From positions 16,421 through 80,420 of the forward strand of contig DASPWZ010000032.1 in NCBI GenBank assembly GCA_035637535.1: a stretch of 64,000 nt of DNA, in the 5' to 3' direction. A program made the position numbers and the translations under genes. Positions 40,290 through 60,544 of this stretch are shown here, in pieces. The notes beneath the pieces were generated by a model, which was not told the origin of the DNA, searched no databases, and was given only the letters and a program-made list of their open reading frames with translations. How positions within the stretch are numbered: position 1 is the stretch's first letter; each line of letters begins with the position of its first letter. Source of the DNA: Candidatus Dormiibacterota bacterium (GTDB lineage Archaea; Thermoproteota; Bathyarchaeia; 40CM-2-53-6).

Positions 40290-40407
40290 GAGCCTGGAAC
40301 ATTCTCTCTAGATCTTCTCTTTCTCTTTTTCTACTAACTATTTCTCGACCCCCCTAGGGGTATGTCTGAACAAAAAAAGTCCTTCACACTTTACAGGCGA
40401 GAACTGT
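40290..40407 (-). repeat. tRNA-trailer module, copy L (inverted copy of 60545-60660)
   Basis: Core 40326-40394 matches the reverse complement of 60559-60626 with 1 mismatch plus 1 indel in ~68 bp. Similarity decays outward on both sides. Confidence 0.8.
40371..40377 (-). terminator. oligo-T (T7) terminator candidate downstream of the tRNA-Leu locus
   Basis: A T7 run on the minus strand, ~32-38 nt beyond the (displaced) tRNA 3' end. Same position as in copy R. Confidence 0.35.
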
Positions 40408-40453
40408 ATGGTGCGGGAGGTGGGATTTGAACCCACGAACCCCTACGGGACAG
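40408..40453 (-). repeat. att direct repeat, distal copy
   Basis: atggtgcgggaggtgggatttgaacccacgaacccctacgggacag, identical to 53293-53338. Confidence 0.9.
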
Positions 40454-40467
40454 AGTCCTGAACCCTG
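40409..40467 (-). pseudogene. tRNA-Leu-like 3' fragment carrying a CAG anticodon arm (element side of att)
   Basis: Minus strand reads CAGGG-TTCAGGA-CTCTG-TCCCGTAGGGGTTC-GTGGGTTCAAATCCCAC-CTCCCGC-A-CCA. No 5' acceptor or D arm is found upstream. Confidence 0.75.
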
Positions 40468-40558
40468 CGGGTTCGGACTGGCGCCTTTTTCTTGCAAGTT
40501 GGTTCAGTCATAGGTACCTACTAAGGCATATATGGTTTTGGGTACCTACTGATCTCAT

Positions 40559-40735
40559 ATGCGTACCATTCGCCTACAGAAGCAGTTGAACCGTAGCGAG
40601 AACGGGAAGAATTACTACAAGTATGTCGTAGTAGTTCCCAGTGAGGCGATAGAAATTTTGGAGTGGTTTGAGGTACGCGAGTTGCATTATCAAGTTAAAG
40701 GACACAACCTAATTCTGAACCCAGCTATCCAATAA
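40559..40735 (+). CDS. small AbrB/SpoVT-like DNA-binding protein (putative; 58 aa, not in the ORF track)
   Basis: MRTIRLQKQLNRSENGKNYYKYVVVVPSEAIEILEW... resembles swapped-hairpin (AbrB-type) regulators. First ORF inside the element. Confidence 0.4.
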   Translation: MRTIRLQKQLNRSENGKNYYKYVVVVPSEAIEILEWFEVRELHYQVKGHNLILNPAIQ

Positions 40736-41009
40736 CTCTCCCATACTGAGAGGTTATTACGCGATAACCCGGTGATATGTCCGTATGACCAATTTTTTTT
40801 TCACCGAGATGTGTCGCTACCCAATTCGCTTATTAGGTGGGGAAGCCCCATTTGATCACAGAAACGCATGATGGTTTTCATGAACGACTGAGGAAGCGCG
40901 ACCCAAATCCGTTTGCCCGTTTTGTGGAAGTTCCGTCTCACCGGACTACGAAGACGAACTATGGGAATGGTTCGAAGGCCGAATTGATGCCATAATAGGA
41001 AAAGCGCCT

Positions 41010-41219
41010 TTGGATTGTGACCCATTCGGCCCCCTCGTCGCGACCAAACCTTGGCATTGTATCCGACAAGCTATCATCGCCGAGTACCCCCGACGAGCCC
41101 TGATGCTCTATTTGACGCTCAAGATCGAGCGCGTTGCAAGAGAAAGGGGCATATCGCGGCGAGCAGCTTCCAACTGGCTCAGAAGACACAAATTCAATCT
41201 TCCGCTGAAGGACAAGTGA
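41010..41219 (+). CDS. HTH DNA-binding protein; possibly the 3' part of a frameshifted Zn-ribbon-HTH gene starting near 40868
   Basis: IERVARERGISRRAASNWLRRH is HTH-like. The frame stays open upstream to 40884 and encodes CPFCG, with no canonical start codon there. Confidence 0.5.
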   Translation: MDCDPFGPLVATKPWHCIRQAIIAEYPRRALMLYLTLKIERVARERGISRRAASNWLRRHKFNLPLKDK

Positions 41220-41325
41220 TGACGCGATGTGGTATATGCATACAGCAAGCGTGTGTCATCATTGTCCTAATCGTTTGCAATCCTTCCGGTTCCGTGTGAT
41301 TTGAAACGCAGATGAGCGAGAATGA

Positions 41326-41580
41326 GTGACTAGTTACTCGGTTGAACTTCAGGATGTGATTAGCGAAGTCTTGAGCAAACACCAGCGAATGTTAAGCCCC
41401 GAGTTTATCGTTAGAGAGGCACGAAGAATTTTCCATGAACGATATGGGCGCTGGATTCGAGGATCAAGCATTGATCGATGCCTCCGCTGGATGGCGAATG
41501 ACCTTGACACAATAACTTCGACCAGGAACGGACGTCACATATTCTACACTCGTCGGAGGGCCCCGAGCCTCCTAGAATAA
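41326..41580 (+). CDS. hypothetical protein (possible winged-helix)
   Basis: 84-aa basic helical ORF in the element's regulatory end. Confidence 0.4.
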   Translation: MTSYSVELQDVISEVLSKHQRMLSPEFIVREARRIFHERYGRWIRGSSIDRCLRWMANDLDTITSTRNGRHIFYTRRRAPSLLE

Positions 41581-41621
41581 GGGCGGCTGATCCTCGAAGT
41601 TAATCAAGATAATGATGAACC

Positions 41622-42035
41622 ATGACACCAACATGTCCGCAATGCAGGAGCGCCAACCCTGATGGCTCGAAGTTCTGCGCTTCCTGTGGACATATTCTTG
41701 TGCTTCTTACTTCGCCTCGATTCGAGCCGCCCATTCTGTGGAAATGTAAGTCAACACTTGGACCTGATGGCGGCTATGTTGTAGATTGGAGCGGAAGTCC
41801 TACCTTTCGAGTAACGTTCGGAGCAATCGGTCAAGACTATTCGGAATTGCACATGGTGCCAGTTCTGACAGGAGTCGGCATCGCGGTCCCGGCTGGAAGT
41901 TGGTTGTTGGAGCGTGTCTCATGCCTGGATTCTTTGAACTGCTACGTGATTGACCCCAAAGAGGTCGCAGTGAAGTACCAAGTAATCAGCAGTAAGCTAA
42001 GTGCGGACGATGTGATTGTTGTTCGAGTTCACTAA
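41622..42035 (+). CDS. zinc-ribbon domain protein (hypothetical)
   Basis: 137 aa. CPQCRSANPDGSKFCASCG at the N-terminus. Confidence 0.5.
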   Translation: MTPTCPQCRSANPDGSKFCASCGHILVLLTSPRFEPPILWKCKSTLGPDGGYVVDWSGSPTFRVTFGAIGQDYSELHMVPVLTGVGIAVPAGSWLLERVSCLDSLNCYVIDPKEVAVKYQVISSKLSADDVIVVRVH

Positions 42036-42089
42036 AAACCCCTAGAAGAAGAGCTGCCTAGGCAGTTCAGCGAAGAAGATGTGTGAGAC

Positions 42090-42287
42090 ATGAGAGACCG
42101 CACTATTGTCATTGCCTTCTTTGGAATATTTGTCGCAGTAGGACTGTTCGTCTCGGGTACGATACTTGGATTGGTGTTGGGACTTGTCGCCTTGTTACTC
42201 GTCGGAATATTCGTGTCACTAGAGCCGAGAAAGGACTATAATGGGGAAGGTCCACTTGCACCGGAAGCGCTGTCAGTCTATCGGTAG
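42090..42287 (+). CDS. small membrane protein (hypothetical)
   Basis: 65 aa, two TM helices. Confidence 0.4.
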   Translation: MRDRTIVIAFFGIFVAVGLFVSGTILGLVLGLVALLLVGIFVSLEPRKDYNGEGPLAPEALSVYR

Positions 42288-42291
42288 TCGC

Positions 42292-42510
42292 TCAAGGTCT
42301 TTTTTCTGGGTCATGTCTGGGCAGTAGCCCTTTCGGCACCTTCTTGGTGGTTCTGATGTACTCGTAGGATGGAGGCAATCCCACCTTCAGTTTGTGTCCA
42401 GTAGTTTTTTCCACTTCCTTCCACACTATCTGTTTCTTTCGAGGATTCCTACTGGCCTTTCTGCCAAGGGCGCTACCACTAAGTTTTCCCATTTTCGTAT
42501 CTGGAGTCAT
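42292..42510 (-). CDS. small basic protein (hypothetical)
   Basis: 72 aa, Lys/Arg-rich. Lies downstream of the TBP gene on the same strand. Confidence 0.3.
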   Translation of the reverse strand: MTPDTKMGKLSGSALGRKASRNPRKKQIVWKEVEKTTGHKLKVGLPPSYEYIRTTKKVPKGLLPRHDPEKRP

Positions 42511-42599
42511 ACTTCGAGCGACTGATACAAAAGACTGTTTCCCCTAGCAGGGTCAAAAATGCAACCATTGAGGTAGGAGGCTGTCCATCATTCGTCGGA

Positions 42600-43142
42600 C
42601 TATTCATCCAGTTTTCTCAATATGTGTCTGGCGCTTTCTAGCAATCGTAGACTCTTCAGACCTGCAAACACCACCTTACCACTCGCAAAAACCAAGACCG
42701 ACGCTCCCTCAAGTTCTTCCGCATAATATATTGCTCCTGAGAATTGCTCTGGCTCATAGAGAACGTTTGGTCTGGTGGCAAGCCGCTCAATGTCTATGGG
42801 CTTTCCAAGTCCGCCTGTTGCCACAATATTTCGGAGCTTTACGACTAGCTTTGTTGGTTTAATCAGCCTGAGTTTCGCAACCTTTCTTGCTGCATATTCA
42901 AGGTCAAGCCTAGCATCTTCTAGACCCTTCGCACCCACACAAATCATCCTTCCAGTGGAAAAAATGGAGACTTTGCCCTTCATTTCCGAATCTTTGAGAT
43001 ACGCACATCTGTACACTGTCGGGTCATAACGGAAACCTTCGATTCCAACCAGCATCTGTAAGTTGACGAGTTGATTGAGGTCTGCTGTTGCAACTAGGTT
43101 CACAATGTTGAGCTTTGGAAGCAGTTCTTGCAGGGCTTGCAA
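42600..43142 (-). CDS. tbp: TATA-box binding protein, element-encoded paralog
   Basis: 180 aa with two TBP repeats (NIVNLVATADL...KVSIFSTGRMICVGAK; LRNIVATGGL...SVLVFASGKVVFAGLK). Confidence 0.9.
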   Translation of the reverse strand: MQALQELLPKLNIVNLVATADLNQLVNLQMLVGIEGFRYDPTVYRCAYLKDSEMKGKVSIFSTGRMICVGAKGLEDARLDLEYAARKVAKLRLIKPTKLVVKLRNIVATGGLGKPIDIERLATRPNVLYEPEQFSGAIYYAEELEGASVLVFASGKVVFAGLKSLRLLESARHILRKLDE

Positions 43143-45541
43143 TCTCCGAAATGGTCTGGGATATGCTTCAACCTACATCTCAGCGGACGACTAAAGGTCT
43201 TATTCCCTTCAAAACAGCGGATGGCGGACCATTGGCTCCATCCAGAGACTTTGAGAACCAAGTTGCAGCCTCACTAGCTGGCATTGTGAAGCAACTGGCC
43301 ACGGGACCAACTCCCCCTTCGGGGGAAGGCAAGGAAAGAGTCCTGCGAACCCTCATCCGAGACAGACTTCTGATCGACACCCTTGGCTGGCCAAGAGAAA
43401 AGCTCCTCTTCGGAGAAATTTACGACATCTACGGGTTTGACCTTCTCAACTATCTTGTAACTTACGTAGAGACAAAGACACCCAATCTTCCAAGACTCAA
43501 CGCCGACGCGATTAACCAATTCGAAAGAAATCTGAAGAGACTTGGGACCTGCGATTTTGGATTCATCACAAACGGCCATCAACTGATTGGGTATGATTGC
43601 ACAACTGGACCTTCTGGAATCAAAGTTTCCCAGAATGAATCAATCGATCTGGAAGACGTAGCTACACAATACCAATCCGGAAAAATCAACGAAAGAACAA
43701 TCGAGAAGCTCTTAACCATCTTTCGACCTCTGAAAGCGAGCCGTTACTTAACAGCGGGACCTTCCTCTTATGAAGTGGAGTTCGGGAAAGTTCACCCAAA
43801 GCCTCAGCGTTCTGACGAAATTCGGATTCTTAGCACCCAAATGAAGAGTGCACTGGACGAGCTAACGGACATGCTTGTGGATGTACTCAGAACATTCCTG
43901 GGGACAAGCATTCCGATCGGCTCATCAAACGGTACCGGATTTACCATATGGGCCCCACTCGATGACTGGAGCACATACTCGGGAAGAGTCCCACCTACCA
44001 CTATCGGCAATTACCTTGATGACAAAGTTAGGAAGCTAAGCGAACTTCGCAAGTCCAGTAAACTCAACAATGCTACATTGAAAAGAGAAGCAAGGCTAGC
44101 AAAGAGGAATCTAGGAATCGAGGCCAAAGAGGAATTGCTGAGCGAATTAATCGCCAGCTTCGTAACGGATCAAGATGGATTCGATACTCATCTAAGAGAT
44201 GAGTTGCTTGAGTTAATCGATGCAGACCATGTCCAAGTTTTCGCGAGGCAAACCGCTCACGTCATCCTCAGTCGGATCTTGCTGTATCGAGTCGCCGAAG
44301 ACAAAGGCCTTGTCGCAAGAAAACTGTCGGGAGCGAGCGTAGACCGACGTCTAAAGGACGTCGGAGGCGGACTACTCGATTGGTATCAGAAGGCGACGGC
44401 CTTCAGAAACATGGTTGATGAGGCTGAAAAGTTGATGGCTGATGTATTCTATTCTCACCTCTACCTCCATGGACTATTTGATTGGTGGGTAGTTCCGTCT
44501 GAAACAAAGGAAGAATATGATGAGAATGAAGAGGCCATCTATAGACGGGCCGAAAGATCAATTGACATTTCCCTGGAAAAATGCATCCGAATTCTCAACC
44601 GATTCGATCTCTCTGAAATTGAAAGAGATATTTGGAAAGATGTGTACCAAGAATATCTTCCCCCGAAAGAGAGAGCCAGACTTGGAGGGTTTTACACCCC
44701 GGATGAAATTGTCAACCTCATTCTCGATCGAGTCGGCTACAACGAAGCCGCGCCACTTTGCAAACTCAAGGTACTTGATCCTGCTTGTGGCAGCGGTACC
44801 TTCTTAGTTGAAGCGGCGAAGAGGCTCAGAACCCACCTAGAAACCAAGAAGATTTGCCATTCAGACCTATCGGAAATCAAGGACAATCGAGAATTGGCAT
44901 GGCGGGTTTTGAACAAAATCGTCGCGGGTTTGTTCGGGCTAGACATCCATCCATTTGCTTGTTTCTTGACCGAAATGAATGTCCTCTTTTACGTCGTAGA
45001 CCTGTTGTTAGTCGCGAAGAAACTTGAGCCGAGCCGCAAAGTCCGAGAACTGAGCATTGGTTGCGACGATTCGCTTCGGCCTCCTGAACAGGAAGTACAA
45101 CTTCAGCTGTCCCAGTTCACACAAACGAATTCTCGTGCCGAGAGCCTCGTGAAAGATCGTGAGAAAGCGCGCCGAATCAAGGGTACGGCTTTCGACATTG
45201 TGGTAGGGAATCCGCCTTGGAGTGGTGTGTTGCGAGGTGAGCTAAGCCCGCTATTTGATGAGGCAACTAAGGCTCTCTACAAACATTACCCGAGTGCGAC
45301 GGACAAGTACGACATATACGTCCTGTTTCTTGAGAGAGGCATTCGGTGGCTACCTGCTAAGGGACATCTTGGCTTTATCACGCAAAACCGATACTTGAGA
45401 AGAAGATATGGTCGCGGAATCCGGCGGTTCATAAGAGAGACCTGTTCTATGATAACACTCATCGATCTCTGGCCGGCGGGCCCTGTGGTATTTCCAGGAC
45501 GGACCAATTACCCATGCATAACGGTATTAGAGCGAATGTAA
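43115..45541 (+). CDS. type IIG/IIL (MmeI-like) restriction-modification enzyme, nuclease plus gamma-N6A methyltransferase part
   Basis: 808 aa. N-terminal D-x9-E-x-K (GFDLLNYLVTYVETK), motif I LDPACGSGTFLVEA, motif IV VVGNPPWSG. The true start is probably 43151 or 43163. Confidence 0.85.
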   Translation: MEAVLAGLAISEMVWDMLQPTSQRTTKGLIPFKTADGGPLAPSRDFENQVAASLAGIVKQLATGPTPPSGEGKERVLRTLIRDRLLIDTLGWPREKLLFGEIYDIYGFDLLNYLVTYVETKTPNLPRLNADAINQFERNLKRLGTCDFGFITNGHQLIGYDCTTGPSGIKVSQNESIDLEDVATQYQSGKINERTIEKLLTIFRPLKASRYLTAGPSSYEVEFGKVHPKPQRSDEIRILSTQMKSALDELTDMLVDVLRTFLGTSIPIGSSNGTGFTIWAPLDDWSTYSGRVPPTTIGNYLDDKVRKLSELRKSSKLNNATLKREARLAKRNLGIEAKEELLSELIASFVTDQDGFDTHLRDELLELIDADHVQVFARQTAHVILSRILLYRVAEDKGLVARKLSGASVDRRLKDVGGGLLDWYQKATAFRNMVDEAEKLMADVFYSHLYLHGLFDWWVVPSETKEEYDENEEAIYRRAERSIDISLEKCIRILNRFDLSEIERDIWKDVYQEYLPPKERARLGGFYTPDEIVNLILDRVGYNEAAPLCKLKVLDPACGSGTFLVEAAKRLRTHLETKKICHSDLSEIKDNRELAWRVLNKIVAGLFGLDIHPFACFLTEMNVLFYVVDLLLVAKKLEPSRKVRELSIGCDDSLRPPEQEVQLQLSQFTQTNSRAESLVKDREKARRIKGTAFDIVVGNPPWSGVLRGELSPLFDEATKALYKHYPSATDKYDIYVLFLERGIRWLPAKGHLGFITQNRYLRRRYGRGIRRFIRETCSMITLIDLWPAGPVVFPGRTNYPCITVLERM

Positions 45542-45542
45542 T

Positions 45543-46664
45543 ATGGCCGGCAATTTTCCTTTTGTCGAGGTAAAACAAAAAGCCCGTAAACTCGACTTAC
45601 AAGCGATTGTCAAAGAAATTGAGATGGGTCTCGCAACCGCTTCCTCCGGAGAGATGGTTGACAACGAATACATCAGAGCTTACTCCCTAGACCAAACCGT
45701 AATTCAGACCAACTCCGGCGAACCATGGAATCTCGCAGCCCCGGAAGTGTCCACGTTGAAGAAACGCATCCTATCGGTAAGCAACTGCGACCGATTGGAT
45801 TCAGTGTTTGAAATGACTCAAGGGGTGACTCCTGGAGGAGGGTGCCTCGACATCTTTCTGCTCGATTCTGCCGAATCTGTCGAAGCCGCACTCATGTCGC
45901 CGGCAGTAGAGGCTGAGGATATTGCAGATTGGAGAATCGGACTTCCTAGGAAGTGGTTGCTGTATCCTTATGCCGCTGACGGCAGGCTGATTAATTTGGG
46001 TAAGTTGGATTATGACTTGGAACAAGCAGATGCCCAAAAAAGAATAGATGCACTAATTGCTACAGGCTCAATAAAATATCCAAGGGCCTCGCGTTACCTC
46101 GTTAGGTCTTACGACAGGCTAGTTGCCCGTGAGGCTGAAAAGAAAACGTGGGACGACTACGGCAAAGAATGGTATGAGTATCACCGGCCGCGAGATCCAG
46201 CTGTAATGAAATCCTCACCAAAGATTCTCACGAGAAGGATGACTCATGACATGGAATTTGCCCTCGACGACCGTGGCTCCGTGCCCACGGATGGCTGTAT
46301 CGCTCTCACATTCAAAAAGAACAATAGGTGGCTAAAGCAAGCTCTTGAGCAAGGTCTGACAAATAACGAAGCGTTTCTTTTTTGTGTTGCAGTGTTGAAT
46401 TCATCTCTCATGAAACTCGTATTGAAGTCGAGTTCTGACGCTTGGCAGGGGAACTTTTTGCAAGTGCGGGAGGACAGTATTGGTCTATTCCCGATCAAGA
46501 TACTTGCAAATGGAGTAATGAAAAATGTCCGTCACATAGTATCGCTCACGAACGGTGCCCTGGCAGATTCTGAGAAACGCAAAGACGTGGACAAGGCAGT
46601 CATTCAATTATACGGCTTAAAATCCGATAGCGACTCGATCGTCTCTCACTCCGTCAACTCATGA
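45543..46664 (+). CDS. TaqI/Eco57I-type C-terminal target-recognition domain protein (separate ORF)
   Basis: 373 aa. Starts 1 nt after the upstream TAA. GKEWYEYHRPRD and ILTRRMTHDMEFALDD resemble the TRD of fused type IIG enzymes. Confidence 0.7.
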   Translation: MAGNFPFVEVKQKARKLDLQAIVKEIEMGLATASSGEMVDNEYIRAYSLDQTVIQTNSGEPWNLAAPEVSTLKKRILSVSNCDRLDSVFEMTQGVTPGGGCLDIFLLDSAESVEAALMSPAVEAEDIADWRIGLPRKWLLYPYAADGRLINLGKLDYDLEQADAQKRIDALIATGSIKYPRASRYLVRSYDRLVAREAEKKTWDDYGKEWYEYHRPRDPAVMKSSPKILTRRMTHDMEFALDDRGSVPTDGCIALTFKKNNRWLKQALEQGLTNNEAFLFCVAVLNSSLMKLVLKSSSDAWQGNFLQVREDSIGLFPIKILANGVMKNVRHIVSLTNGALADSEKRKDVDKAVIQLYGLKSDSDSIVSHSVNS

Positions 46665-46687
46665 CCCCAAGGTTATGAGTTCTCGGT

Positions 46688-47161
46688 TTACTTGTCCGGA
46701 ACGGATCCACGGGCTTTACCTGCCCGTTTGAGGCGACGGTACTCGGTGAGTCCATAAAACCAGTCGTTGATGATTTGGCTTTCATTTTTCGAAACGACGT
46801 TTCTTAGAACTTCGTCAGATGAGGTCTTGGCAATCTTCGCCAACGATTCGAGTCGATGCAAAGGAACACCTCTTGTTCCCTTCCACATCTCGCGAATTGA
46901 TCCGTTTAGTCCATCGCCAGATAAGTAACCCATAGCCAATGCTATTGAGTGCAGACTTCCCTCAGCTTCATAGGCTCTTGAGAAAAGGCTGTTTCGAAAC
47001 TCGGACCGGAGAAAGACTACTTGGTTTTTCTTCATCGTCGAAGGCATTGTTTCCCCGATCGACGGCAAGTCGCAGGACACTTGAGTGACGTTTAGGAACC
47101 AAGGGCCAATTATGTCTTCGCAAGAAAGGTAGCCGATGCAACGCCCGAATGACAACCTCAA
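46688..47161 (-). CDS. hypothetical protein, possible HTH regulator (likely start 47047)
   Basis: 157-aa ORF. The internal MPSTMKKNQ start gives 119 aa. Has a helical segment, SLHSIALAMGYLS...GVPLHRLESLAKIAK. Confidence 0.4.
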   Translation of the reverse strand: MRLSFGRCIGYLSCEDIIGPWFLNVTQVSCDLPSIGETMPSTMKKNQVVFLRSEFRNSLFSRAYEAEGSLHSIALAMGYLSGDGLNGSIREMWKGTRGVPLHRLESLAKIAKTSSDEVLRNVVSKNESQIINDWFYGLTEYRRLKRAGKARGSVPDK

Positions 47162-47301
47162 TCCATTCGTCTAAAGTTAGCATTAGACTGGAACCTTAAG
47201 AGTGAATGGACGGGACTAAGCAATCCGATGCAGTCCAACAATAGAGAAGACTTTGCGATGATAAGGTAGGTTTTGACTGGTGACGGTTATAGCTGGCTTG
47301 A

Positions 47302-47634
47302 CTACTGTCTTCGGACTTCCGCTATGATCTCTTTCAGGCTCCCTAGCGGAATGGGTGGGCTCGCCTCAATCTTCTTGATGAGTGTATCAAGAAATTCCAG
47401 TCTACGCTCAAACTTCGCGTTCTGACCTTTGAGCGTTATCCAGACGACCACCTCGGCTGCAACGCCGATAGGCGAGAATTCAATTAATTCGAGTTGTTTG
47501 GCGAGAATCGCTGCAACGAGAACGGCAAAGCCAGCTACAAGAGTTGTCACGAGAAAGATAGCCATATTCAGGTATGCGCTCGTGATGTAATTAGAGACAA
47601 GCTCAATTCTCATGCGTTCGCCTTCTTTGCTCAT
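47302..47634 (-). CDS. hypothetical two-TM membrane protein
   Basis: 110 aa, with two hydrophobic helices in the N-terminal half and a soluble helical C-terminal half. Confidence 0.4.
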   Translation of the reverse strand: MSKEGERMRIELVSNYITSAYLNMAIFLVTTLVAGFAVLVAAILAKQLELIEFSPIGVAAEVVVWITLKGQNAKFERRLEFLDTLIKKIEASPPIPLGSLKEIIAEVRRQ

Positions 47635-47659
47635 GAATTATCAACTAAGGGCATCCAGC

Positions 47660-47818
47660 TTAGAGTTTTTCCACCACGATATTCGCGCATTCCTTACACA
47701 TGAAGCACCTTCCGCCCCAACGGAATGTAATCTCATGTGCCGTGACCTTGCCGCATGTCCAGCACCATACTGATGAAAAGCGGGCGAAGAAGTCGGGATT
47801 CTTCTCTAAGGATGGCAT
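47660..47818 (-). CDS. small zinc-ribbon protein (52 aa, not in the ORF track)
   Basis: MPSLEKNPDFFARFSSVWCWTCGKVTAHEITFRWGGRCFMCKECANIVVEKL, giving CxxC...CxxC. Confidence 0.35.
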   Translation of the reverse strand: MPSLEKNPDFFARFSSVWCWTCGKVTAHEITFRWGGRCFMCKECANIVVEKL

Positions 47819-47877
47819 GAAAGCCTAAGCTCTGTTAGAGACTGTTAAGTAAGAGATGGGTCCGAAACTCTTCACCG

Positions 47878-48942
47878 TTGGAACAAGGTTCTAATCTGGA
47901 ATCGAGGACATTATTTCAGAATTCGAAAGAGGGTGATGGAAAGTTGCCCAATGATTCGGTTAAAGTGTACTTGCCCGAGGAAGCACTCCAAGGTGAAGAG
48001 ATACCGTCGTTCGCGTTATGGCATGGAGCTACCTTCGAGGGGATACAGGTACGCATTCCTCGCGGGTTGAAAGTGTCGGAAGTGTACAATGTGGCAAACG
48101 ATGATTGGACTCTCTCTGAAACCGAATTGTCGGTCAAACAGGTGGAAGTAAACGGTTACTTGGGGCTCGTAATCACCTCTGAACAAATGGAAGAGACATC
48201 GAAAGAGGTCGAACTCCATTGGGATTTCTTTCATAAGGATGGAAAGTTTTCGGAGTCGAAGCGAATTCATGTCTTCCGGCCGCTGATTGAAGTTGAAGTG
48301 CCATCCGAGGTTCGGCTTGAGAAATCTCCGAAGGTTGTCGCCAACCCGTTGCGAATAGAAAACAAAGGGCTGGGAACTGTTATCATCGGAGTAAGAGCAT
48401 TAGATGACAGCAAGGCGACGTTGGAAGAACCAGCAGTAGTATCAGATTTCGTAAAGTCGTTCAACGAAGATGTCAAAGCCGGTTTCGGTGAGATGAAGAC
48501 TCGATTTCCTGACCTTCACCGTCTCATTGGCGAAGTCGCCCGCATCTTCAGCGACCCTCCGAATCTGTCAGAAAAGGCAGGCGTGCAAAGGCTTCAACGA
48601 ATTGGAGAGGAAGTGAAGCAGACGAACCAAGAGTACACGGACTTCGGGAAATCGATTGGAGAGGTTCTCGGTAGCGCCCTGCTGGCGAACCTTCAGAAAT
48701 TCAACATATTCCAGCAACTCGCTGAGTACATTCACTCAGTTCAAGGTAGAAAGGTCCTCGTGAGAGATCCATTGAACACTGTACATGTTGGACCTGGAAA
48801 ATCCAAGTTGCATTTTAGAGTCGAGTACACTGACCTTGCGTACGGGTACTATCCGCACGTCGAAATCAAGACCATGATTCAATCAGATGAAGACAAGATT
48901 TTCCCCCTTTACAAGCTTTTCAGGTGGAGTGGGACGAGATGA
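47878..48942 (+). CDS. unknown protein A of a coupled pair (no recognisable domain)
   Basis: 354 aa with a TTG start. Soluble, with no catalytic or NTP-binding motifs seen. Confidence 0.6.
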   Translation: MEQGSNLESRTLFQNSKEGDGKLPNDSVKVYLPEEALQGEEIPSFALWHGATFEGIQVRIPRGLKVSEVYNVANDDWTLSETELSVKQVEVNGYLGLVITSEQMEETSKEVELHWDFFHKDGKFSESKRIHVFRPLIEVEVPSEVRLEKSPKVVANPLRIENKGLGTVIIGVRALDDSKATLEEPAVVSDFVKSFNEDVKAGFGEMKTRFPDLHRLIGEVARIFSDPPNLSEKAGVQRLQRIGEEVKQTNQEYTDFGKSIGEVLGSALLANLQKFNIFQQLAEYIHSVQGRKVLVRDPLNTVHVGPGKSKLHFRVEYTDLAYGYYPHVEIKTMIQSDEDKIFPLYKLFRWSGTR

Positions 48943-49901
48943 CCGTTCCAATCGTCGCCCAAGAAGGGAAGGCAGCGCTCAAGATAGTAGAGAAGATCGG
49001 TAAGATCCTAGACACTCTAAAACGGTCAGTAACAAAGGAATCAGAGGTCCTCTCCTTAAGGTTGCCCGACCACACTGGAGAGTATTCCGTAGTGCTGAAA
49101 GTTAAGTCGGGCTATTACGGAGGAAAAGTTGCCTTTTCCATCCCTAACATAATCAGACTGCAAGCCGTCTGTTTACCCGCTTTTCGTCGTGAGGAGGCTG
49201 CTGTCTCTCGGGAAGGCGACACCTTCCAATTTGACCCGGGCAAACTTTCCGCCGGCGCGGAAACTGTATTGTTGAAGTTTCTCTTCCAGATAGAAGAAAG
49301 AACTGTTCTTGAGAATCTTGTGAAGCTAAACTCCCAACTTGACCCTTTGGGGTCGGACTCTTCTGCCGAAGACAAATACTGGCTCACTGCTCAAATCAAG
49401 TTTCCAGCCTCTCTTCAGAAGCTATACAGCAGTTTGGAAGTGCTCGGGGTCGATTTTCGAGTAGATGTTGGTGTCCATCAGCAGATAAAGACCGTTCCTA
49501 GCGAAATTAGGGGAATTATCGAAAGGACAGCCGACTTCAGTGGCACTGCGGACCGAGAGAAACTCCTTAGACTCGTCGGGGAACAACGCAGGGCGGCGAA
49601 GTTTGCATCAAGATTCAGAGAAGACTTTCGCGAACTTGCACTGTTATTCATGCCTACTCGCTTTAGCCGCTACATAGTAGTCCAACAACCTTTCAGGTAT
49701 ACAGAATGTGAGCCCGGACTCGAACTATTCGAGTCTTCATTCGCCCCGTTGCCGAAGTTCATGACCGTTACCTCTCGAACTGACCTCAGCCTAGAGGAAC
49801 CTGCTAAGGAGGGGGTTCTGGTCTACAAGAAGAAGGAGGTAAAAGACGAAATTCAACGCATATTTCCCGCGTCAAAGGACTACAAGTCTTCCTCAAGCTG
49901 A
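48924..49901 (+). CDS. unknown protein B of a coupled pair (no recognisable domain)
   Basis: 325 aa. Its start overlaps the end of A by 19 nt. Soluble, no motifs seen. Confidence 0.6.
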   Translation: MEWDEMTVPIVAQEGKAALKIVEKIGKILDTLKRSVTKESEVLSLRLPDHTGEYSVVLKVKSGYYGGKVAFSIPNIIRLQAVCLPAFRREEAAVSREGDTFQFDPGKLSAGAETVLLKFLFQIEERTVLENLVKLNSQLDPLGSDSSAEDKYWLTAQIKFPASLQKLYSSLEVLGVDFRVDVGVHQQIKTVPSEIRGIIERTADFSGTADREKLLRLVGEQRRAAKFASRFREDFRELALLFMPTRFSRYIVVQQPFRYTECEPGLELFESSFAPLPKFMTVTSRTDLSLEEPAKEGVLVYKKKEVKDEIQRIFPASKDYKSSSS

Positions 49902-50064
49902 ATGAGTGCTGTCCCAGCTGTAAGTTGCTTCGGGGGCGTCACCTGCCCCGTTTGTTCAGCACATACCGCTACTTCCCGGGCCTCAAGGAACGGAGTCCGA
50001 AGGGCGGGGCTTTCGACTGAGATTGTTAAGTAAGAGATGAGACCACGCACTCTGGGGTCCAAGA

Positions 50065-51015
50065 TTGGTACTGCCAGATTACCAAACCCTAATGCTTCCG
50101 TTGATGCAGACAATCGGAGACAACCAAGTGCACGATCTGCACGACATTATCGAGTCTCTCGCCAAACAATTCAAGCTGAGGGACCCGGATAGGGTCGAAA
50201 TGCTTCCAAGCGGTAAACAGAGAACGTTCGACAATAGGGTTGGTTGGGCAAGGACTTACCTCAAGAAAGCAGGGCTTCTTGAGACTCCCAGCATGGGAAA
50301 GCTCAAGATAACCGCCCGTGGATTAGATATGTTGAAGAACAATCCGCCCAATCTTGACCGAAAGTTTCTCATGCAGTTTCCCGAGTTTGTCGAGTTCCAG
50401 AAGGTTCAACAAAAAACACTCTTGAAAAAGATTGAAACCGACGAGGACAAGAACCTGTTTAAGAGATTTCAAGCTATCTCGGATTTTGCAGCGGCCTCTA
50501 CGCCTACTGAATTGTTAGAAGCAAGTTATCAGGGTCTACGGGCCGCGTTGGCAGAAGAACTCTTAGACCGTGTTAAGAAATGCTCGCCACGGTTTTTCGA
50601 GGATCTTGTTCTGGACCTGCTTGTGCAGATGGGCTATGGTGGGTCTCGGAAAGACGCAGAGCGTGTTGGACGAAGTGGTGACGGTGGAATAGACGGCACC
50701 ATTAACGAAGATAAGTTAGGGCTGGATGTTGTCTATGTTCAGGCAAAGCGGTGGGATAAGGGAACGGTGGCGAGGAAGGAAATACAGGCATTTGTTGGCA
50801 GTCTTGAACCGAAGAAAGCTAAGAAAGGGGTCTTCATTACAACTTCCCAGTTCTCCGAGGACGCCAGAGACTACGTGAAGGGGACTGAGAAGAGAATAGT
50901 GCTCATAGACGGGGAAGAACTCGCCCAATTGATGATTGACCACGGGATTGGGGTCACCTTAGAGAACCGCTATGATATCAAGAAGGTGGACGTGGACTAC
51001 TTCAGCGAGGGATAA
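50065..51015 (+). CDS. mrr: Mrr-family type IV restriction endonuclease
   Basis: 316 aa. Mrr_N-like winged helix (LPDYQTLMLPLMQ) and an Mrr catalytic core (GDGGIDG...DVVYVQAKRW). Confidence 0.88.
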   Translation: MVLPDYQTLMLPLMQTIGDNQVHDLHDIIESLAKQFKLRDPDRVEMLPSGKQRTFDNRVGWARTYLKKAGLLETPSMGKLKITARGLDMLKNNPPNLDRKFLMQFPEFVEFQKVQQKTLLKKIETDEDKNLFKRFQAISDFAAASTPTELLEASYQGLRAALAEELLDRVKKCSPRFFEDLVLDLLVQMGYGGSRKDAERVGRSGDGGIDGTINEDKLGLDVVYVQAKRWDKGTVARKEIQAFVGSLEPKKAKKGVFITTSQFSEDARDYVKGTEKRIVLIDGEELAQLMIDHGIGVTLENRYDIKKVDVDYFSEG

Positions 51016-51289
51016 TTAGGAAAACTCTGCTCGGTCTCACGATCTGTGACTTGAATATGCTGGTTGCCCCGTTAGAAGGGCGATTGTAGGTGTTGTCGGT
51101 ACCTGTTGTATCCATATATCACATCTACTCCCTTCACTAAGAATTCGTAGATCCACTAAGACGGCAAAGCTTGTGATTGAGGAGCGCCAAAACTTCTACC
51201 TCCTTTCGCGACCCAGCGCGAGTAAGAGACCTTAGAGGCGACCCCATCTCGGCATTATGCCCAGGAATTTGGGGTGGATGAGATAGTGC

Positions 51290-52417
51290 TCAAATGATTC
51301 CAATCATTAGCAGGAACAACACGGTAACTAGGAGTGCAGCGTAGACTGCGGCTACGAGTCTGTTCTGTAGAATTGTTCTCGCATGCTTGGTTGGAGTCTT
51401 GATTTGGACTGTTGGCACGAGGCTTAGTCCTTTGGATCTGGGAACGAACATCATTCCAGAACCATTCCTAGACGCCCATCCAGTCCATCCAAGCTCGCTA
51501 CGGTTCACGAGTGCCCGCTCTTCTTTCTCGCGCAATTGGTTGTAGACCGAATCGCCCAGCATGCTTCGAACAGTTCTCGCATCGAATGTTCCCGGCGTAC
51601 CCGTAGACCGAACTAACAGAAGGTCCGCATCAGCCCTCAGGTCGATTGGCGTCGAGTAGAATCTATGAACTGCGCTAAGAACTATCACTAATCCCTCGGT
51701 CATGCCAGCACAGCGCTTCAACGCACCGCGGATATCATAGAGTGCCCCAAGCAGTATTCCACGAGTCCTGCGGTCAACGTTGTCGAGCGCCTTGGTCATG
51801 TCGTCTAAGAATAGCAACACAGCCTTGTAGGGACGGGCTGGAAGATTGTCCAACAGGGCTACCAAGTCGCGACTTGAGCGGACCGCATAGACTGACCCAG
51901 CGCCATATCTTGAAACAAGATATTCGCAGATAGAGGACCCAATCGAGGTCTTCCCAGTGTTTGGTTTGCCGAATGCTACGATATTCAAGTGGTGTATCGC
52001 ATTGTCGTCTATGCCTTGGCTTCTCGGCAAGGGTTCTGGGATTAGCTTGTCAAGTATGCTCGCCAAAGTGGCCTCTGGATTTGGTTGGAGAATGGCAAGT
52101 GCTGCTCGTTTCAATGAACGCTCATGCAAGTGCGTTGAGCCGGAGGCTTTTTGTTTGGATTGGCCGCTAAGGTCTTTGCCGGGTCTACCGATCGCCCAGT
52201 GACCGAAGCCCAAGAATTCTAAGGCTCGATCAATCCAGCCGCCTTCGAAAAGCTCGTACGCCTCTGGCTTGTTGCCATCCCGCAAGCCACTTTGGAACCG
52301 TGATTGCTGGAACATGCTTTCAGCTTGGGTCAGAACGGCTTGCGCGCGCTCGTTGCTGAACTGGGCTCTGAGTCCGCCGAAAATCTTGGAGTTCAGCTCG
52401 ACTAGGGACGCCATCAC
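51290..52417 (-). CDS. element P-loop ATPase with C-terminal TM anchor
   Basis: 375 aa. Walker A FGKPNTGKTS, Walker B VLLFLDDMT, C-terminal LVAAVYAALLVTVLFLLMIGII. 4-nt overlap with the integrase stop. Confidence 0.75.
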   Translation of the reverse strand: MMASLVELNSKIFGGLRAQFSNERAQAVLTQAESMFQQSRFQSGLRDGNKPEAYELFEGGWIDRALEFLGFGHWAIGRPGKDLSGQSKQKASGSTHLHERSLKRAALAILQPNPEATLASILDKLIPEPLPRSQGIDDNAIHHLNIVAFGKPNTGKTSIGSSICEYLVSRYGAGSVYAVRSSRDLVALLDNLPARPYKAVLLFLDDMTKALDNVDRRTRGILLGALYDIRGALKRCAGMTEGLVIVLSAVHRFYSTPIDLRADADLLLVRSTGTPGTFDARTVRSMLGDSVYNQLREKEERALVNRSELGWTGWASRNGSGMMFVPRSKGLSLVPTVQIKTPTKHARTILQNRLVAAVYAALLVTVLFLLMIGII

Positions 52418-53268
52418 TTACGCCTCCTAAAGACTTGGACACCGTCCTCTAGTTTGCAGACAAATTCGAACCCGGTTTCGACCAGAGCTGTGACCTCTGA
52501 GAGAGTTCTAGCCGCTTTGCAATGGAAGGCGTCATCTTCCGTAGTTTGGAGTTGGATGTAGCGTAGCGTGTTCTGGATTGATTTGTGTCCTAGGAGTCTA
52601 GAGACGTGGACTATGTCCTTTGTTCGAGCATACTCCACCGTTCCTCTCCAATGGCGAAGAGTATGAAAGTGGATTGACTGTATCCTAGGGTTTCCTAGTT
52701 TGGAGGCTATTCTCTTTCTCTGCTTCTGGAACAGCCTGCCGAAGTGGTTAAGCGTTCCATCTCCCCAAACCTTCTGACTATTCCTAGGCAGCGTGCCCAG
52801 TCGCTCGGTCAATCTCAGACTTAGCTTGAGCAGTCTAGCGTTGGAGTTCTTCTCTGGTGTTACTCTTACAGTTCTCTGCTCAAGGTCTAGGTCCGTCCAT
52901 CGGACGCTCCAAGCCTCACCAGCCCTAGCCCCCGTATCTTTCAAGAAGAGCAGGAAAGAGCCTACCCTTCGTGAACATCCTCCAATCAGTTGATCTATCT
53001 CTGCTTCAGTTGGTAGGAAAGGTACCTTGTCTATTCTGCGATATCGTGGCTTGGTGAACGAAACGCCTCGAAACTTGTAGAAACTGTATAGAACGTTAGA
53101 AGCAATCTCCTTGGTTCCGAGAGACCAATCCAGTTTCGAGAGATAGCCCTTGACAGCTTCACCGTCGGCAAGGTTGCTGTGCTGGGACAGTCGTCGTAGG
53201 ATTCTGATACTTCTATCGACGCTGGATTCTCGGTATCCTTCTTTCTGTAAGTGGAAGCCGTATTCCAC
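52414..53268 (-). CDS. int: tyrosine recombinase/integrase
   Basis: 284 aa. ARAGEAWSVRW (Arg), HTLRHWRGT (HxxR), LLGHKSIQNTLRYI (His...Tyr). Adjacent to the tRNA 3' end. Confidence 0.9.
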   Translation of the reverse strand: MEYGFHLQKEGYRESSVDRSIRILRRLSQHSNLADGEAVKGYLSKLDWSLGTKEIASNVLYSFYKFRGVSFTKPRYRRIDKVPFLPTEAEIDQLIGGCSRRVGSFLLFLKDTGARAGEAWSVRWTDLDLEQRTVRVTPEKNSNARLLKLSLRLTERLGTLPRNSQKVWGDGTLNHFGRLFQKQRKRIASKLGNPRIQSIHFHTLRHWRGTVEYARTKDIVHVSRLLGHKSIQNTLRYIQLQTTEDDAFHCKAARTLSEVTALVETGFEFVCKLEDGVQVFRRRK

Positions 53269-53292
53269 TATCGAAGGTTCGTAGGTTGGAAC

Positions 53293-53338
53293 ATGGTGCG
53301 GGAGGTGGGATTTGAACCCACGAACCCCTACGGGACAG
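53293..53338 (-). repeat. att direct repeat, tRNA-proximal copy
   Basis: Identical to 40408-40453. Confidence 0.9.
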
Positions 53339-53434
53339 GCGCCTCAGGCCTGCGCGTCCAAGACCCTACGGTCGACGGGTCTCTTTGACCTGGCTTGGCA
53401 ACACGAGCCGCCCACATACAAGGCGGACTCCCGC
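53294..53434 (-). tRNA. tRNA-Leu(GAG), 141 nt, with two non-canonical insertions
   Basis: Minus strand reads GCGGGAG...CAGGC-CTGAGGC-GCCTG-TCCCGTAGGGGTTC-GTGGGTTCAAATCCCAC-CTCCCGC-A-CCA. Hairpin inserts follow the acceptor strand and sit in the D loop. A second GCGGGAG lies at 53449-53455. Confidence 0.8.
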
Positions 53435-53602
53435 AAACACCAGGCCCGCTCCCGCAAAGACCCAAACCTAAACGACGCCCCTAATTGGCTTTCGCCAATC
53501 AGACAAAATCATCAGAATCCTGATAATGTTTAATTCAAGCCCGCCCCGGAACCCAACACAACCGAAACCCTGCTTGTCCCATACAACAGGAAACATGTTC
53601 CC

Positions 53603-54058
53603 ATGGCCACCCGACGCAGAAAAACCCGACGCCTACGAGGCAGCAGATGCCACGGTTGGGGACGATCCGGACAACACCGCGACAGCGGAATGCAAGGAGG
53701 ACACGGAAACGCCGGCTGGAAACGCCACCGATGGAGCAGCGTCATACGCTACGGCTGGGAGATCGGAAAAACAGGCTTCACACCCATCAACCCTAAACAC
53801 CAACGAACCATTAACATAGACCAGCTCAGCCAGAACCTCCAGACACTATCCGAACAGGGCAAGACAAAACCCGCTGGGAACCGGATAGAAGTTGACCTAG
53901 GCCAGATAGGCTACACCAAATTGCTAGGCAACGGAAGAGTCACTCAACCTCTCAGAATCATCGTCGCGCAGTGCACCGAAAAAGCAGCCAGTAAGATATC
54001 CGAGGCAGGCGGCGAAGTAGTACTGCCCAAGCCCGCTGAAGCCAGTAAAGAAGGCTGA
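53603..54058 (+). CDS. rpl15: 50S ribosomal protein L15 (uL15)
   Basis: 151 aa. RRKTRRLRGSRCHGWGRSGQHRDSGMQGGHGNAG. Confidence 0.93.
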   Translation: MATRRRKTRRLRGSRCHGWGRSGQHRDSGMQGGHGNAGWKRHRWSSVIRYGWEIGKTGFTPINPKHQRTINIDQLSQNLQTLSEQGKTKPAGNRIEVDLGQIGYTKLLGNGRVTQPLRIIVAQCTEKAASKISEAGGEVVLPKPAEASKEG

Positions 54059-54064
54059 TCCCAA

Positions 54065-55552: not shown

Positions 55553-56151
55553 TGAGAGGCCAAGCCTTGCAGGCAACAATCATAGTAGCCGGTGTACCGG
55601 GGGTCGGCAAGACAACAGTCCTCCAAGAGCTGGAGGCTGTGGCCAAGGAGAGAAAGGTTCCGCTCAAGATTGTCAATTTCGGAAACGTCATGAATGAGCT
55701 TTTCAAAAAGCATGGGGTTGAGATTCACCGGGACCACATGCGCAAGGAGGACATTACCCTCCAGGCGAAGATACAGGAACAAGCCGCACGAATGATTTCA
55801 AAGACCCCAGGAAACTCTACCCTCGTCGTCGACACTCACATGTTTGTAAGAACAAACGATGGCATATGGCCCGGCACTCCCCGGAAGGTCCTTGAAGCCT
55901 TGGACCCGAGCATGATTATCCTGATAGAAGCAGACCCTGAGGAGGTCGCTCGAAGAAGAGCCGCCGACACCACCCGTTACCGAGACAGTCAGAACCTGGA
56001 AGATGCTAAGGCCGACCTGCAATGGTCGAGGAACATGGCAAGCGCAATAGCCGTCCTGGCCGGAGTTCCAATTCAGATATTGCAGAACCAAAACGGCCAG
56101 CAGCGACAATCGGCTGAGGAACTCCTCAAGATTATCGAGAAGCGTAACTAG
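55552..56151 (+). CDS. adkA: adenylate kinase, archaeal type
   Basis: 199 aa. IIVAGVPGVGKTTVLQEL. Confidence 0.9.
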   Translation: MRGQALQATIIVAGVPGVGKTTVLQELEAVAKERKVPLKIVNFGNVMNELFKKHGVEIHRDHMRKEDITLQAKIQEQAARMISKTPGNSTLVVDTHMFVRTNDGIWPGTPRKVLEALDPSMIILIEADPEEVARRRAADTTRYRDSQNLEDAKADLQWSRNMASAIAVLAGVPIQILQNQNGQQRQSAEELLKIIEKRN

Positions 56152-56152
56152 C

Positions 56153-56740: not shown

Positions 56741-57009
56741 CAAACCCGCATCAGAGGACTCACGGCCGAAGAAGGCTCCCTGTAAGATTACCTTCAGGGA
56801 GGAGAACTTTGCATTTTGAGCCAAGAGCCCCCGCGAAGGCACAGTGTTCCCGCTGTGGAAGGGAACTGCATGGAGTTCCAACGTTAAAGCCGTTGAGATA
56901 TTCAAGGAGCGCTCGCGCCCCATCAAGGCCATTTGGAGGAGTATTGTGCCCGAACTGTCTCTCGACAGAGGTTCGTGCCCTGGTCCGTTCTTCCAGCGTT
57001 TCAACATGA
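56737..57009 (+). CDS. rpl34e: 50S ribosomal protein L34e
   Basis: 90 aa. RRRLPVRLPSGRRTLHF...CSRCGRELHGV. Confidence 0.9.
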   Translation: MTNPHQRTHGRRRLPVRLPSGRRTLHFEPRAPAKAQCSRCGRELHGVPTLKPLRYSRSARAPSRPFGGVLCPNCLSTEVRALVRSSSVST

Positions 57010-57566: not shown

Positions 57567-57609
57567 ATGAGGATTTCGACCGCGAAAGCCTTCTAGGAAG
57601 ATCGTCCCG

Positions 57610-57906: not shown

Positions 57907-58013
57907 CAGATACCCGGCAAAAGCTAGGATCTATTTCCTCTCGGCAACCGTCTGCTTTTCGGTTGAGATTCTTTAAGAGACGCCGGATTCCACTGTTGAA
58001 GTGGAGATGATGA

Positions 58014-59043: not shown

Positions 59044-59056
59044 AGCTGACCCGCTA

Positions 59057-60536: not shown

Positions 60537-60544
60537 ACACGCTA

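Follow-up and report, generated by a model that had tools for sequence, protein, structure and literature searches.

In a 64,000-nucleotide stretch of DNA (hereafter the window: positions 16,421 to 80,420 of contig DASPWZ010000032.1, GenBank assembly GCA_035637535.1, a metagenome-assembled genome, or MAG, of the class Bathyarchaeia), one 46-bp sequence occurs twice, and its two copies bracket an interior of 12,839 bp. An earlier interpretation made from the letters alone (the sequence-only reading) had seen here an element integrated into a tRNA-Leu(GAG) gene. Is this segment a mobile element, and if so, of which kind, how recently did it move and what does it carry? We conclude that a soil Bathyarchaeon very probably hosts here an integrative mobile element of 12.84 kb that is of the kind described as cryptic integrated elements (CIEs) and carries defense genes as cargo. 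The case is well supported but rather ordinary among archaeal integrated elements of this known kind; its added interest lies in a sibling element that shares the cell and documents module swapping, a CAG-type anticodon arm in its own attachment site (attP), a gene for a TATA-box-binding protein (TBP), and population evidence of recent spread.

The attachment repeats, their tRNA gene and the empty sites

The delimitation of the element starts from the repeat copies (attL and attR) and the tRNA gene that contains one of them:

40408-40453, minus strand: attL, distal copy of the 46-bp core and displaced 3' part of the tRNA-Leu; exact repeat, with the original tRNA trailer on the host side (40407 downwards)
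53293-53338, minus strand: attR, 46-bp core within the functional tRNA gene; exact repeat, placed by the tRNA parse
53294-53434, minus strand: tRNA-Leu(GAG), 141 nt; exons 53434-53428, 53401-53383 and 53355-53294
53427-53402 (26 nt) and 53382-53356 (27 nt), minus strand: introns of tRNA-Leu(GAG); boundaries set by homology, +/- 1-2 nt

The 46-mer ATGGTGCGGGAGGTGGGATTTGAACCCACGAACCCCTACGGGACAG is present in exactly 2 copies in the window, with 0 mismatches between them and 0 copies expected by chance, and the count remains 2 across the whole MAG (1.72 Mb in 54 contigs, ~76% complete), in agreement with the repeat and coordinates first given for it. Read on the minus strand, the core begins with the last 3 nt of the anticodon stem and runs through the variable and T arms to the 3' strand of the acceptor stem, the discriminator base, CCA and 1 further nt. 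Its identification as the 3' part of a tRNA-Leu(GAG) therefore stands, while its supposed start at the variable arm has to be moved 3 nt into the anticodon stem. The right copy forms the end of a tRNA with an anticodon arm CAGGC-CUGAGGC-GCCUG (anticodon GAG), a long variable arm and a T arm, followed by the acceptor 3' strand CTCCCGC, discriminator A and CCA; the paired 5' acceptor strand, GCGGGAG, lies at 53434. In the 5' half, the tRNA is interrupted by two non-canonical inserts, one of 26 nt after position 7 and one of 27 nt in the D arm, both of which are kept as hairpins with variable loops in three congeners (G013, G010 and G015). Unspliced, the gene is called neither by ARAGORN (default and intron modes) nor by Rfam (gathering and E-value modes), because of these two non-canonical introns. 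With the inserts removed in silico, 1451 of 1467 ARAGORN calls were tRNA-Leu(gag), and the spliced D arm is identical to that of the intron-less tRNA-Leu(CAG) genes of congeners.

Upstream of attL, there is no D arm and no 5' acceptor strand; the left copy lacks the 5' half of a tRNA and is therefore a displaced 3' fragment, not a second tRNA gene. This bears directly on the simplest objection, namely that there is no element and that the repeat reflects two neighboring tRNA-Leu genes or a segmental duplication. The repeat itself, and nothing more, speaks for this objection, and the case that the sequence-only reading had named against itself, two tRNA-Leu genes each with its own 5' half, fails at attL. 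The interior, moreover, combines foreign composition with an integrase gene, and relatives have empty sites that join both flanks precisely at the core. On the grounds of the missing 5' half and these empty sites, we rejected the two-gene or duplication reading, to which we assign practically no probability.

The empty sites were found in two congeners, G013 and G010, where nothing but the same trailer and a single tRNA-Leu(GAG) separates speH from rpl15. The junction lies exactly at the core: the tRNA 5' part is followed by the core, and then by the trailer known from the left flank of the window (...CACCAT/ACGGTTCT...GTAAAGTGTGAAGGA...). The flank of G013 is 97.8% identical to that of the window, and a third congener, G015, is likewise collinear. 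Profile matches identified the housekeeping genes that had been named as neighbors of the element, speH (AdoMet_dc) on the left and rpl15/secY on the right. The composition of the element also sets it apart, with a GC content of 0.489 against 0.518 +/- 0.007 in 197 genome windows of the same size (lowest 0.5%), and a tetranucleotide distance of 0.0124 against 0.0075 +/- 0.0014 (top 2% of genome windows). Empty sites in relatives and a deviating composition were two of the checks that the sequence-only reading had proposed, and both turned out in its favor.

Several observations on the surrounding tRNA genes stand on their own. In four congeners (G020, G012, G003 and G009; loci L025-L028), the whole 7.3-kb block from tRNA-Leu to tRNA-Ser(GCT) (window 53293-60636; genes including rpl15, secY, adk and cbf5) has the reverse orientation with respect to speH. 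The trailers of the two tRNAs form a 68-bp inverted repeat that is 98.5% identical (40327-40394 versus 60558-60625) and can mediate inversion of the block. A short hairpin with a T-run, GTAAAGTGTGAAGGACTTTTTT, is found at window 40372-40393 and at 14 other places in the MAG (15 in total, with at most 3 mismatches); the copies inspected lie just downstream of tRNA genes, and the motif may be a conserved terminator or processing module. With introns allowed, ARAGORN called only 17 tRNAs in this 76%-complete MAG, and no gene is called for several 3' ends that look like those of tRNAs. Many tRNAs of the host lineage, and with them many att sites, are probably concealed by non-canonical introns. 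In other words, standard tRNA finders overlook intron-laden bathyarchaeal tRNAs, so that att sites in them are under-reported.

The integrase, a proposed history of attP and evidence of recent spread

To ask how the element entered this gene, two further features are needed:

52414-53268, minus strand: tyrosine integrase, 284 aa, intact; Pfam Phage_integrase (PF00589) 1.7e-16; phrog_1; XerA-like
40454-40467, minus strand: element-side extension of attL, which together with the first 3 core nt forms a tRNA-Leu(CAG)-like anticodon arm, CAGGG-TTCAGGA-CTCTG

The integrase had been described as an intact gene 25 nt from the complete tRNA, and the integration as pNOB8-type rather than SSV-type; we arrived at the same result on both points. 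The open reading frame (ORF) starts 25 nt from the 3' end of the tRNA, whose strand it shares, and its catalytic set aligns in full with that of XerA (4a8e), comprising R (TGARAGE), K (EKNSNAR), HxxR (HTLRH), H (LGHKS) and Y (LRY). Instead of the SSV-type (type I) situation, where att is part of the integrase gene and integration divides that gene into N and C portions, the gene is a single intact ORF with zero overlap with the core. Since the integrase is unsplit and the att sequence lies outside its ORF, the arrangement is therefore of the pNOB8 type. In the mechanism that we propose, the integrase would recombine the attP of a circular element with the tRNA gene (attB) inside the 46-bp core. 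The tRNA stays intact through the identical 3' part that the element supplies.

The attP site would then be a tRNA-Leu-like sequence of ~63 nt with a well-formed anticodon arm of the CAG type. In 14 congeners, tRNA-Leu(CAG) genes are intron-less and unoccupied; their arm, CAGGG-CTCAGGA-CCCTG, is 2 positions away from the attP arm, and a single acceptor position sets their 3' parts apart from the core. In the host itself, the tRNA-Leu(CAG) gene (contig C49, about 70.70-70.86 kb) has a different arm, and an insert of ~34 nt follows its D arm and precedes its anticodon arm. Judged from these likenesses, the simplest reading would be a past association of the element with a tRNA-Leu(CAG) gene, with recombination within the shared 3' core.

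Integrases of this family are widespread. A scan of named genomes yielded 135 relatives in Bathyarchaeia, confirmed by tblastn, a result that also points to the class of the host, and many of their loci have tRNA-derived direct repeats of 20-44 bp that adjoin the integrase and bracket 2-10 kb. A comparison of 80 loci gave no backbone common to the family, only the integrase itself being shared; an ATPase-like match in G003, considered as a shared backbone gene, was a chromosomal paralogue. The same attB has been reused in G003 (locus L062, G003:C43, 1-4474), where a 75%-identical integrase, 3.4 kb and a 37-bp exact core copy with trailer make up a mini-element of ~4.3 kb at tRNA-Leu(GAG), with two ORFs of ~166-169 aa. 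In addition, the N-terminus of a 79%-identical integrase abuts tRNA-Leu at a contig end in G020, and a truncated integrase remnant lies beside tRNA-Leu in G021.

How recent, then, is the insertion? Several independent soil assemblies contain the element at this site; its copies there are identical or nearly so, while the flanks differ by 0.3-4.5%. Contig k141_857348 of ERZ27253182 has 15 differences in 4.7 kb of left flank, 0 in 12.8 kb of element and 126 in 2.8 kb of right flank; at the rate of the left flank, ~41 differences would be predicted inside the element. In a contig of GCA_009772155.1 (L189), which does not cover the right side, the left flank has 21 differences in 0.76 kb, the last of them at 40405, 3 nt before the core, and the element has 4 in about 2 kb, together with a 321-nt deletion (window 41754-42076) that removes part of the Zn-ribbon gene listed below. 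A variant from JGI 3300012356 (L186) has 16 substitutions in the element, and its 808-aa methylase is split into 469 + 299 aa. The step in divergence at the att site therefore indicates recent insertion into, or transfer among, diverged hosts. The element had been called "recent or still mobile": the first part is supported, if indirectly, by these identical copies in diverged hosts, while an excised form was not seen in the assembled contigs. Assembled contigs upstream of the integrase continue into the 5' half of the host tRNA, and contigs of 13.3-13.6 kb that we had considered as excised circles were discarded, their ends reading as attR and running into speH, hence integrated.

These data also allow us to weigh the possibility of an immobilized relic, fixed and no longer excising, whose perfect repeats are kept only via selection on the tRNA in one copy. 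Such a relic would fit with contigs from several samples that are all integrated, and the split methylase and 321-nt deletion variants can be taken as signs of decay. Selection on the tRNA, however, leaves the distal copy unprotected, yet it is identical at 46 of 46 positions, and the integrase is intact with all of its catalytic residues. An old, fixed insertion also agrees poorly with 0 differences across 12.8 kb between flanks with 15 in 4.7 kb and 126 in 2.8 kb, and with the empty sites of relatives whose flanks are 97.8% identical. We consider a relic unlikely, and continue with a recently moved integrative element as the preferred reading.

Cargo, an integrase-linked ATPase and a sibling element

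What does the element carry? Between attL and the integrase, we distinguish the following features:

40559-42510, both strands: cluster of small ORFs of 58-84 aa, from the ORF list; no Pfam or PHROGs match
41622-42035, plus strand: Zn-ribbon protein, 137 aa, a shared backbone gene; Pfam Zn_Ribbon_1 1.3e-6
42600-43142, minus strand: divergent TBP paralogue, 180 aa, two repeats; Pfam TBP 2.9e-31
43115-45541, plus strand: type IIG-like restriction-modification (R-M) protein, 808 aa; Pfam Eco57I 2.8e-24, N6_Mtase and MmeI_Mtase; PADLOC REase_MTase_IIG 7e-30
45543-46664, plus strand: specificity subunit with a TaqI_C-type target recognition domain (TRD), 373 aa; Pfam TaqI_C 6.8e-6; PADLOC MTase_II and IIG C-terminal regions
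46688-47161, minus strand: ORF of 157 aa, function unassigned by profiles; no matches in Pfam, PHROGs, PADLOC or NCBIfam
47302-47634, minus strand: small membrane protein, 110 aa; one strong and one weak hydrophobic helix by hydropathy, no family match
47878-48942, plus strand: first member of a conserved gene pair; AlphaFold2 model with pLDDT 84, predicting two Ig-like beta-sandwiches, a helical bundle and a beta domain
48924-49901, plus strand: second member of the pair, 325 aa; overlaps the first by 19 nt
50065-51015, plus strand: Mrr-type (type IV, modification-dependent) restriction endonuclease; Pfam Mrr_N 2.6e-30 and Mrr_cat 7.9e-39; PADLOC mREase_IV 2.2e-91, full length
51290-52417, minus strand: P-loop ATPase, 375 aa, predicted FtsK/HerA/A32-like core and C-terminal transmembrane helix; weak AAA and RuvB_N Pfam matches

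Profile searches bear out the gene content read from the letters (small regulators, TBP, R-M, Mrr, an unassigned pair and a membrane ATPase), as well as the statement that no replicase or capsid gene is recognizable: in Pfam, PHROGs and NCBIfam, no capsid, terminase, replication or conjugation gene and no excisionase was recognized, and Pfam scans gave no VirB4/TraG-type ATPase, relaxase, pilus or archaeal conjugation module. Restriction genes make up ~45% of the element. Most of the cargo consists of defense genes, in the form of a two-ORF type IIG-like R-M system, the Mrr endonuclease and the conserved pair as a candidate two-gene module, accompanied by the divergent TBP.

The 808-aa protein combines an N-terminal D...ExK nuclease motif (read by eye only) with an Eco57I/MmeI-type N6-adenine methylase. 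Type IIG enzymes unite a nuclease, a gamma-class N6-adenine methylase and a TRD in one chain; of these, the protein has the methylase domain, and the TRD is on a separate ORF. The methylase stop and the specificity ATG are 1 nt apart in different frames (45539-45545), so this is not one gene broken by an in-frame stop. The two ORFs could represent either a genuine two-subunit layout, in which a methylase with a separate TRD resembles BcgI, or a frameshift. The Mrr protein contains both the Mrr_N winged helix and the Mrr_cat PD-(D/E)xK domain of type IV enzymes. The TBP scores 107.6 bits with Pfam (cut-off 22.9) and 102.8 bits with NCBIfam, where it falls under every TBP cut-off (at least 181); it is 35-37% identical to two canonical TBPs of the host (contigs C3 and C24), and its repeat 1 has TVYRC in place of the EQFPG stirrup. 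A literature search on TBPs of archaeal mobile elements gave nothing direct, and the locus is a starting point for asking what an element-borne TBP does. Several of the small ORFs at 40559-42510 are called as genes in other assemblies; they are possible regulators or an excision factor.

The conserved pair is rare: among 5.8 billion proteins, we found about 10 relatives of the first member and about 13 of the second, and among 59 species representatives of the host family the pair occurs in 1, the present genome, once per element. A fold search with the first member returned generic Ig-like structures only, and a scan of IMG/VR gave no relatives of the pair. In its distant contexts, the pair always stands beside a DUF4145 protein that matches PADLOC PD-T7-4 (1e-14 to 1e-19), near integrases. 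In one of them (L176, a contig of GCA_030157125.1), the DUF4145 gene and the pair lie beside an integrase and a protein-primed family B DNA polymerase (PolB), and the pair is therefore carried there by a different kind of mobile element. In the window element and its sibling, the neighbor is an Mrr-type nuclease instead of DUF4145. The pair with a swappable nuclease-like partner would accordingly form a candidate defense module, and pairs beside Mrr or DUF4145/PD-T7-4-like genes are candidates when mining for archaeal defense systems. We had also considered the pair as core backbone or virion genes for its 95-97% conservation with the sibling, and dropped this idea given the defense-type contexts elsewhere.

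The sibling element lies in the same MAG (contig C26, ~60160-73752, ~13.4 kb), integrated in tRNA-Ser(CGA), and is also present in metagenomes. Starting from an intron-bearing tRNA-Ser(CGA), it has an integrase ~35 nt downstream, the ATPase, a DpnII/MboI-like restriction endonuclease, an Eco57I-type methylase split in another way, a DUF8426 + Mrr_cat protein (PADLOC PDC-S02, 2e-139), the same pair, a TIR protein and a Zn-ribbon protein. Its distal end is a partial tRNA-Ser copy, 26 bp exact with an adjacent 15-bp match offset by indels. Relative to the window element, the ATPase is 87% identical in amino acids, the members of the pair 95% and 97% (92% in nucleotides over 2.08 kb), the Zn-ribbon protein 67% and the integrase 42%; the R-M and Mrr genes are non-homologous or very distant, TBP is absent from the sibling, and the 110-aa membrane ORF is not conserved in it. 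The near-identity of the pair suggests recent exchange between these co-resident elements. A third element type (L153-155) has the integrase-ATPase module at the tRNA-Ser site, together with a 648-aa protein of unassigned function, a Cas4-like protein and a HEPN protein. From the sibling and this third type, it therefore follows that the integrase module sets the target, the ATPase travels along and defense cassettes are exchanged.

As a separate observation, a hairpin-like insert of 21 nt, GGGCCCCTTGTAGGCCCAATA, splits the T arm in the distal att of the sibling (C26:73691-73752) when this copy is compared with the functional tRNA-Ser(CGA); the insert is either a T-arm intron of the displaced original 3' part or an acquired insertion.

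The ORF of the ATPase overlaps the integrase stop codon, and integrase and ATPase are adjacent in three element types. An AlphaFold2 model (27 homologues; pLDDT 77) predicts an N-terminal helical domain, an ASCE core and a transmembrane helix at residues 344-373. Foldseek matched this model in PDB to the pCW3 coupling protein TcpA (2.5e-5), the STIV B204 packaging NTPase and EccC (TM-scores ~0.3-0.5), and in BFVD to proteins of an uncultured archaeal virus and a Nitrosopumilus spindle-shaped virus (TM-scores 0.41-0.53), followed by A32-like packaging ATPases. A profile search of PDB sequences gave only P-loop-level matches, the gene contexts of distant relatives were uninformative, and no relatives were found in the IMG/VR scan. 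Taken together, the model suggests a fold of the FtsK/HerA/A32 kind rather than classical AAA+. The genome has 3 members of the family, namely the element copy, the sibling copy and a chromosomal paralogue (window 61666-62787, minus strand, 373 aa, C-terminal transmembrane helix; 53% identical over the core) that is conserved and syntenic in G003 and G009. The wider family, annotated as uncharacterized "AAA family ATPase", is large in Bathyarchaeia. Tentatively, the integrase-linked, membrane-anchored ATPase might move or partition the DNA of the element.

Two other identities for the element turn on this gene. In the first, the segment would be the provirus, complete or else defective or a satellite, of a spindle-shaped or pleomorphic archaeal virus not yet described; the ATPase beside the integrase would then serve viral morphogenesis or packaging, and the capsid would be built from small hydrophobic proteins like the product of the 110-aa ORF. 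The viral folds listed above, first the uncultured archaeal and Nitrosopumilus spindle-shaped viruses and then A32/FtsK packaging ATPases, with STIV B204 in PDB, point in this direction. So does the bathyarchaeal provirus Huangdivirus, whose integrase likewise lies beside an AAA+ ATPase and which has small two-helix capsid proteins (PMC10848311); the 110-aa ORF has its one strong and one weak hydrophobic helix. Neither PHROGs nor Pfam, however, gave a virion match, IMG/VR contained no relatives of ATPase or pair, and the 110-aa ORF is not conserved in the sibling. The share of restriction genes (~45%) and the conserved chromosomal member of the ATPase family also argue against a virus, and we regard a provirus as rather improbable.

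The ATPase could alternatively be a DNA translocase or coupling protein of a minimal conjugative or mobilizable element. A model for this exists in the integrative and conjugative elements of actinomycetes (AICEs), which transfer double-stranded DNA with a single FtsK-like pump. TcpA as the top PDB fold match, EccC (FtsK-like) among the others, the C-terminal transmembrane helix and the linkage to the integrase in three element types are all consistent with such a role, and identical copies in diverged hosts imply cell-to-cell transfer. Against this, the TM-scores are only about 0.3, VirB4, relaxase and pilus genes are missing, and the chromosomal paralogue suggests a cellular role; we know of no archaeal precedent for AICE-like transfer by a single ATPase. 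We therefore think a conjugative element quite improbable, and retain an integrated element of the cryptic kind.

A number of points nevertheless weigh against this assignment. No excisionase, replication, capsid or conjugation gene was recognized with Pfam and PHROGs, leaving autonomy unproven, and neither an excised circle nor an attP junction was found, all ~7 independent contigs being integrated. The chromosomal paralogue means that the ATPase need not serve mobility, and its fold matches are modest (TM-scores 0.3-0.5). Finally, the divergence step rests on metagenome contigs that are possibly chimeric, and on the right flank it comes only after 310 nt of conserved tRNA and upstream sequence; simple chimeras are disfavored, since the k141 assemblies ended with a k-mer longer than the 46-bp core.

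A bolder interpretation, which we find doubtful though worth stating, is that the element and its sibling represent an undescribed bathyarchaeal family that retargets itself by integrase swap and transfers by a minimal, single-ATPase route, virus-like or AICE-like. Its core would be the integrase with a membrane-anchored FtsK/A32-like DNA pump derived from a conserved cellular paralogue; it would move between tRNA-Leu isoacceptor genes via the shared 46-bp core, exchange defense cassettes that include a new three-gene system (pair plus nuclease), and redirect host transcription through its TBP.

Comparison with known systems

Published work on mobile DNA of Bathyarchaeia centers on viruses (PMC10848311), and a light literature search found no systematic description of bathyarchaeal non-viral integrated elements or of the present element family. 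Bathyarchaeia are among the most abundant uncultured archaea of soils and sediments. At this locus, both ends of the element are defined and empty sites serve as a control; a sibling shares the cell, population evidence speaks for recent spread, and the module swapping in the sibling shows that a new integrase means a new tRNA target. The locus is a practical starting point for asking how DNA moves between uncultured archaea.

With regard to integration, She et al. (2002/2004) are said to have distinguished a pNOB8-type (type II) from the SSV-type mode in archaea. The present element shares with the pNOB8 type an integrase that is intact after integration, att sequences outside the integrase ORF over the tRNA 3' end, and flanking direct repeats. 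The assignment is one by arrangement, the integrase being only XerA-like in sequence (33 bits to 4a8e), and in contrast to pNOB8-type plasmids there are no conjugation genes in the element.

In gene organization, a parallel exists in bacterial defense islands on integrative elements (P4-like elements and integrase-associated hotspots), which combine a conserved integrase-proximal backbone with exchangeable defense cassettes. Here, too, a backbone is accompanied by cassettes (R-M, Mrr, TIR, HEPN, Cas4-like) that are swapped between siblings. The differences are the archaeal host, the intron-bearing tRNA target and the inclusion of a TBP; moreover, no helper virus is known.

Among the elements of the same host class, Duan et al. 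(2024, PMC10848311) described Huangdivirus, a spindle-shaped provirus of Bathyarchaeia whose capsid proteins VP1-3 are fusellovirus-like and whose AAA+ ATPase is ATV-like. Huangdivirus resembles the present element in host class, in the tyrosine integrase that adjoins an ATPase gene and in its integrated state; it differs from it in that we found no capsid homologue in the element, whose ATPase core appears FtsK/HerA/A32-like.

The closest comparison is with the CIEs of thaumarchaea (Krupovic et al. 2019, PMC6563490), which are tyrosine-integrase elements that are mostly found in the 3'-distal parts of tRNA genes, intron-containing ones included. Hallmark genes of viruses or of conjugation are missing from them, and their cargo includes R-M systems, Zn-ribbon proteins and TFIIB (TFB). 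Our element differs from these in its host class, Bathyarchaeia, in its TBP instead of TFB, and in a backbone of integrase and membrane-anchored FtsK/A32-like ATPase without a recognizable replication protein; its 46-bp att is like the 29-69 bp of crenarchaeal elements, whereas the thaumarchaeal median is 17 bp (PMC6563490). In line with the definition of a CIE, it has no capsid, terminase or conjugation hallmarks, the similarity of its ATPase to packaging ATPases being weak and at the level of fold. It further shares with thaumarchaeal CIEs the tRNA 3' target, the tyrosine integrase, the lack of hallmark genes, and the combination of R-M genes, a Zn-ribbon protein and a basal transcription factor.

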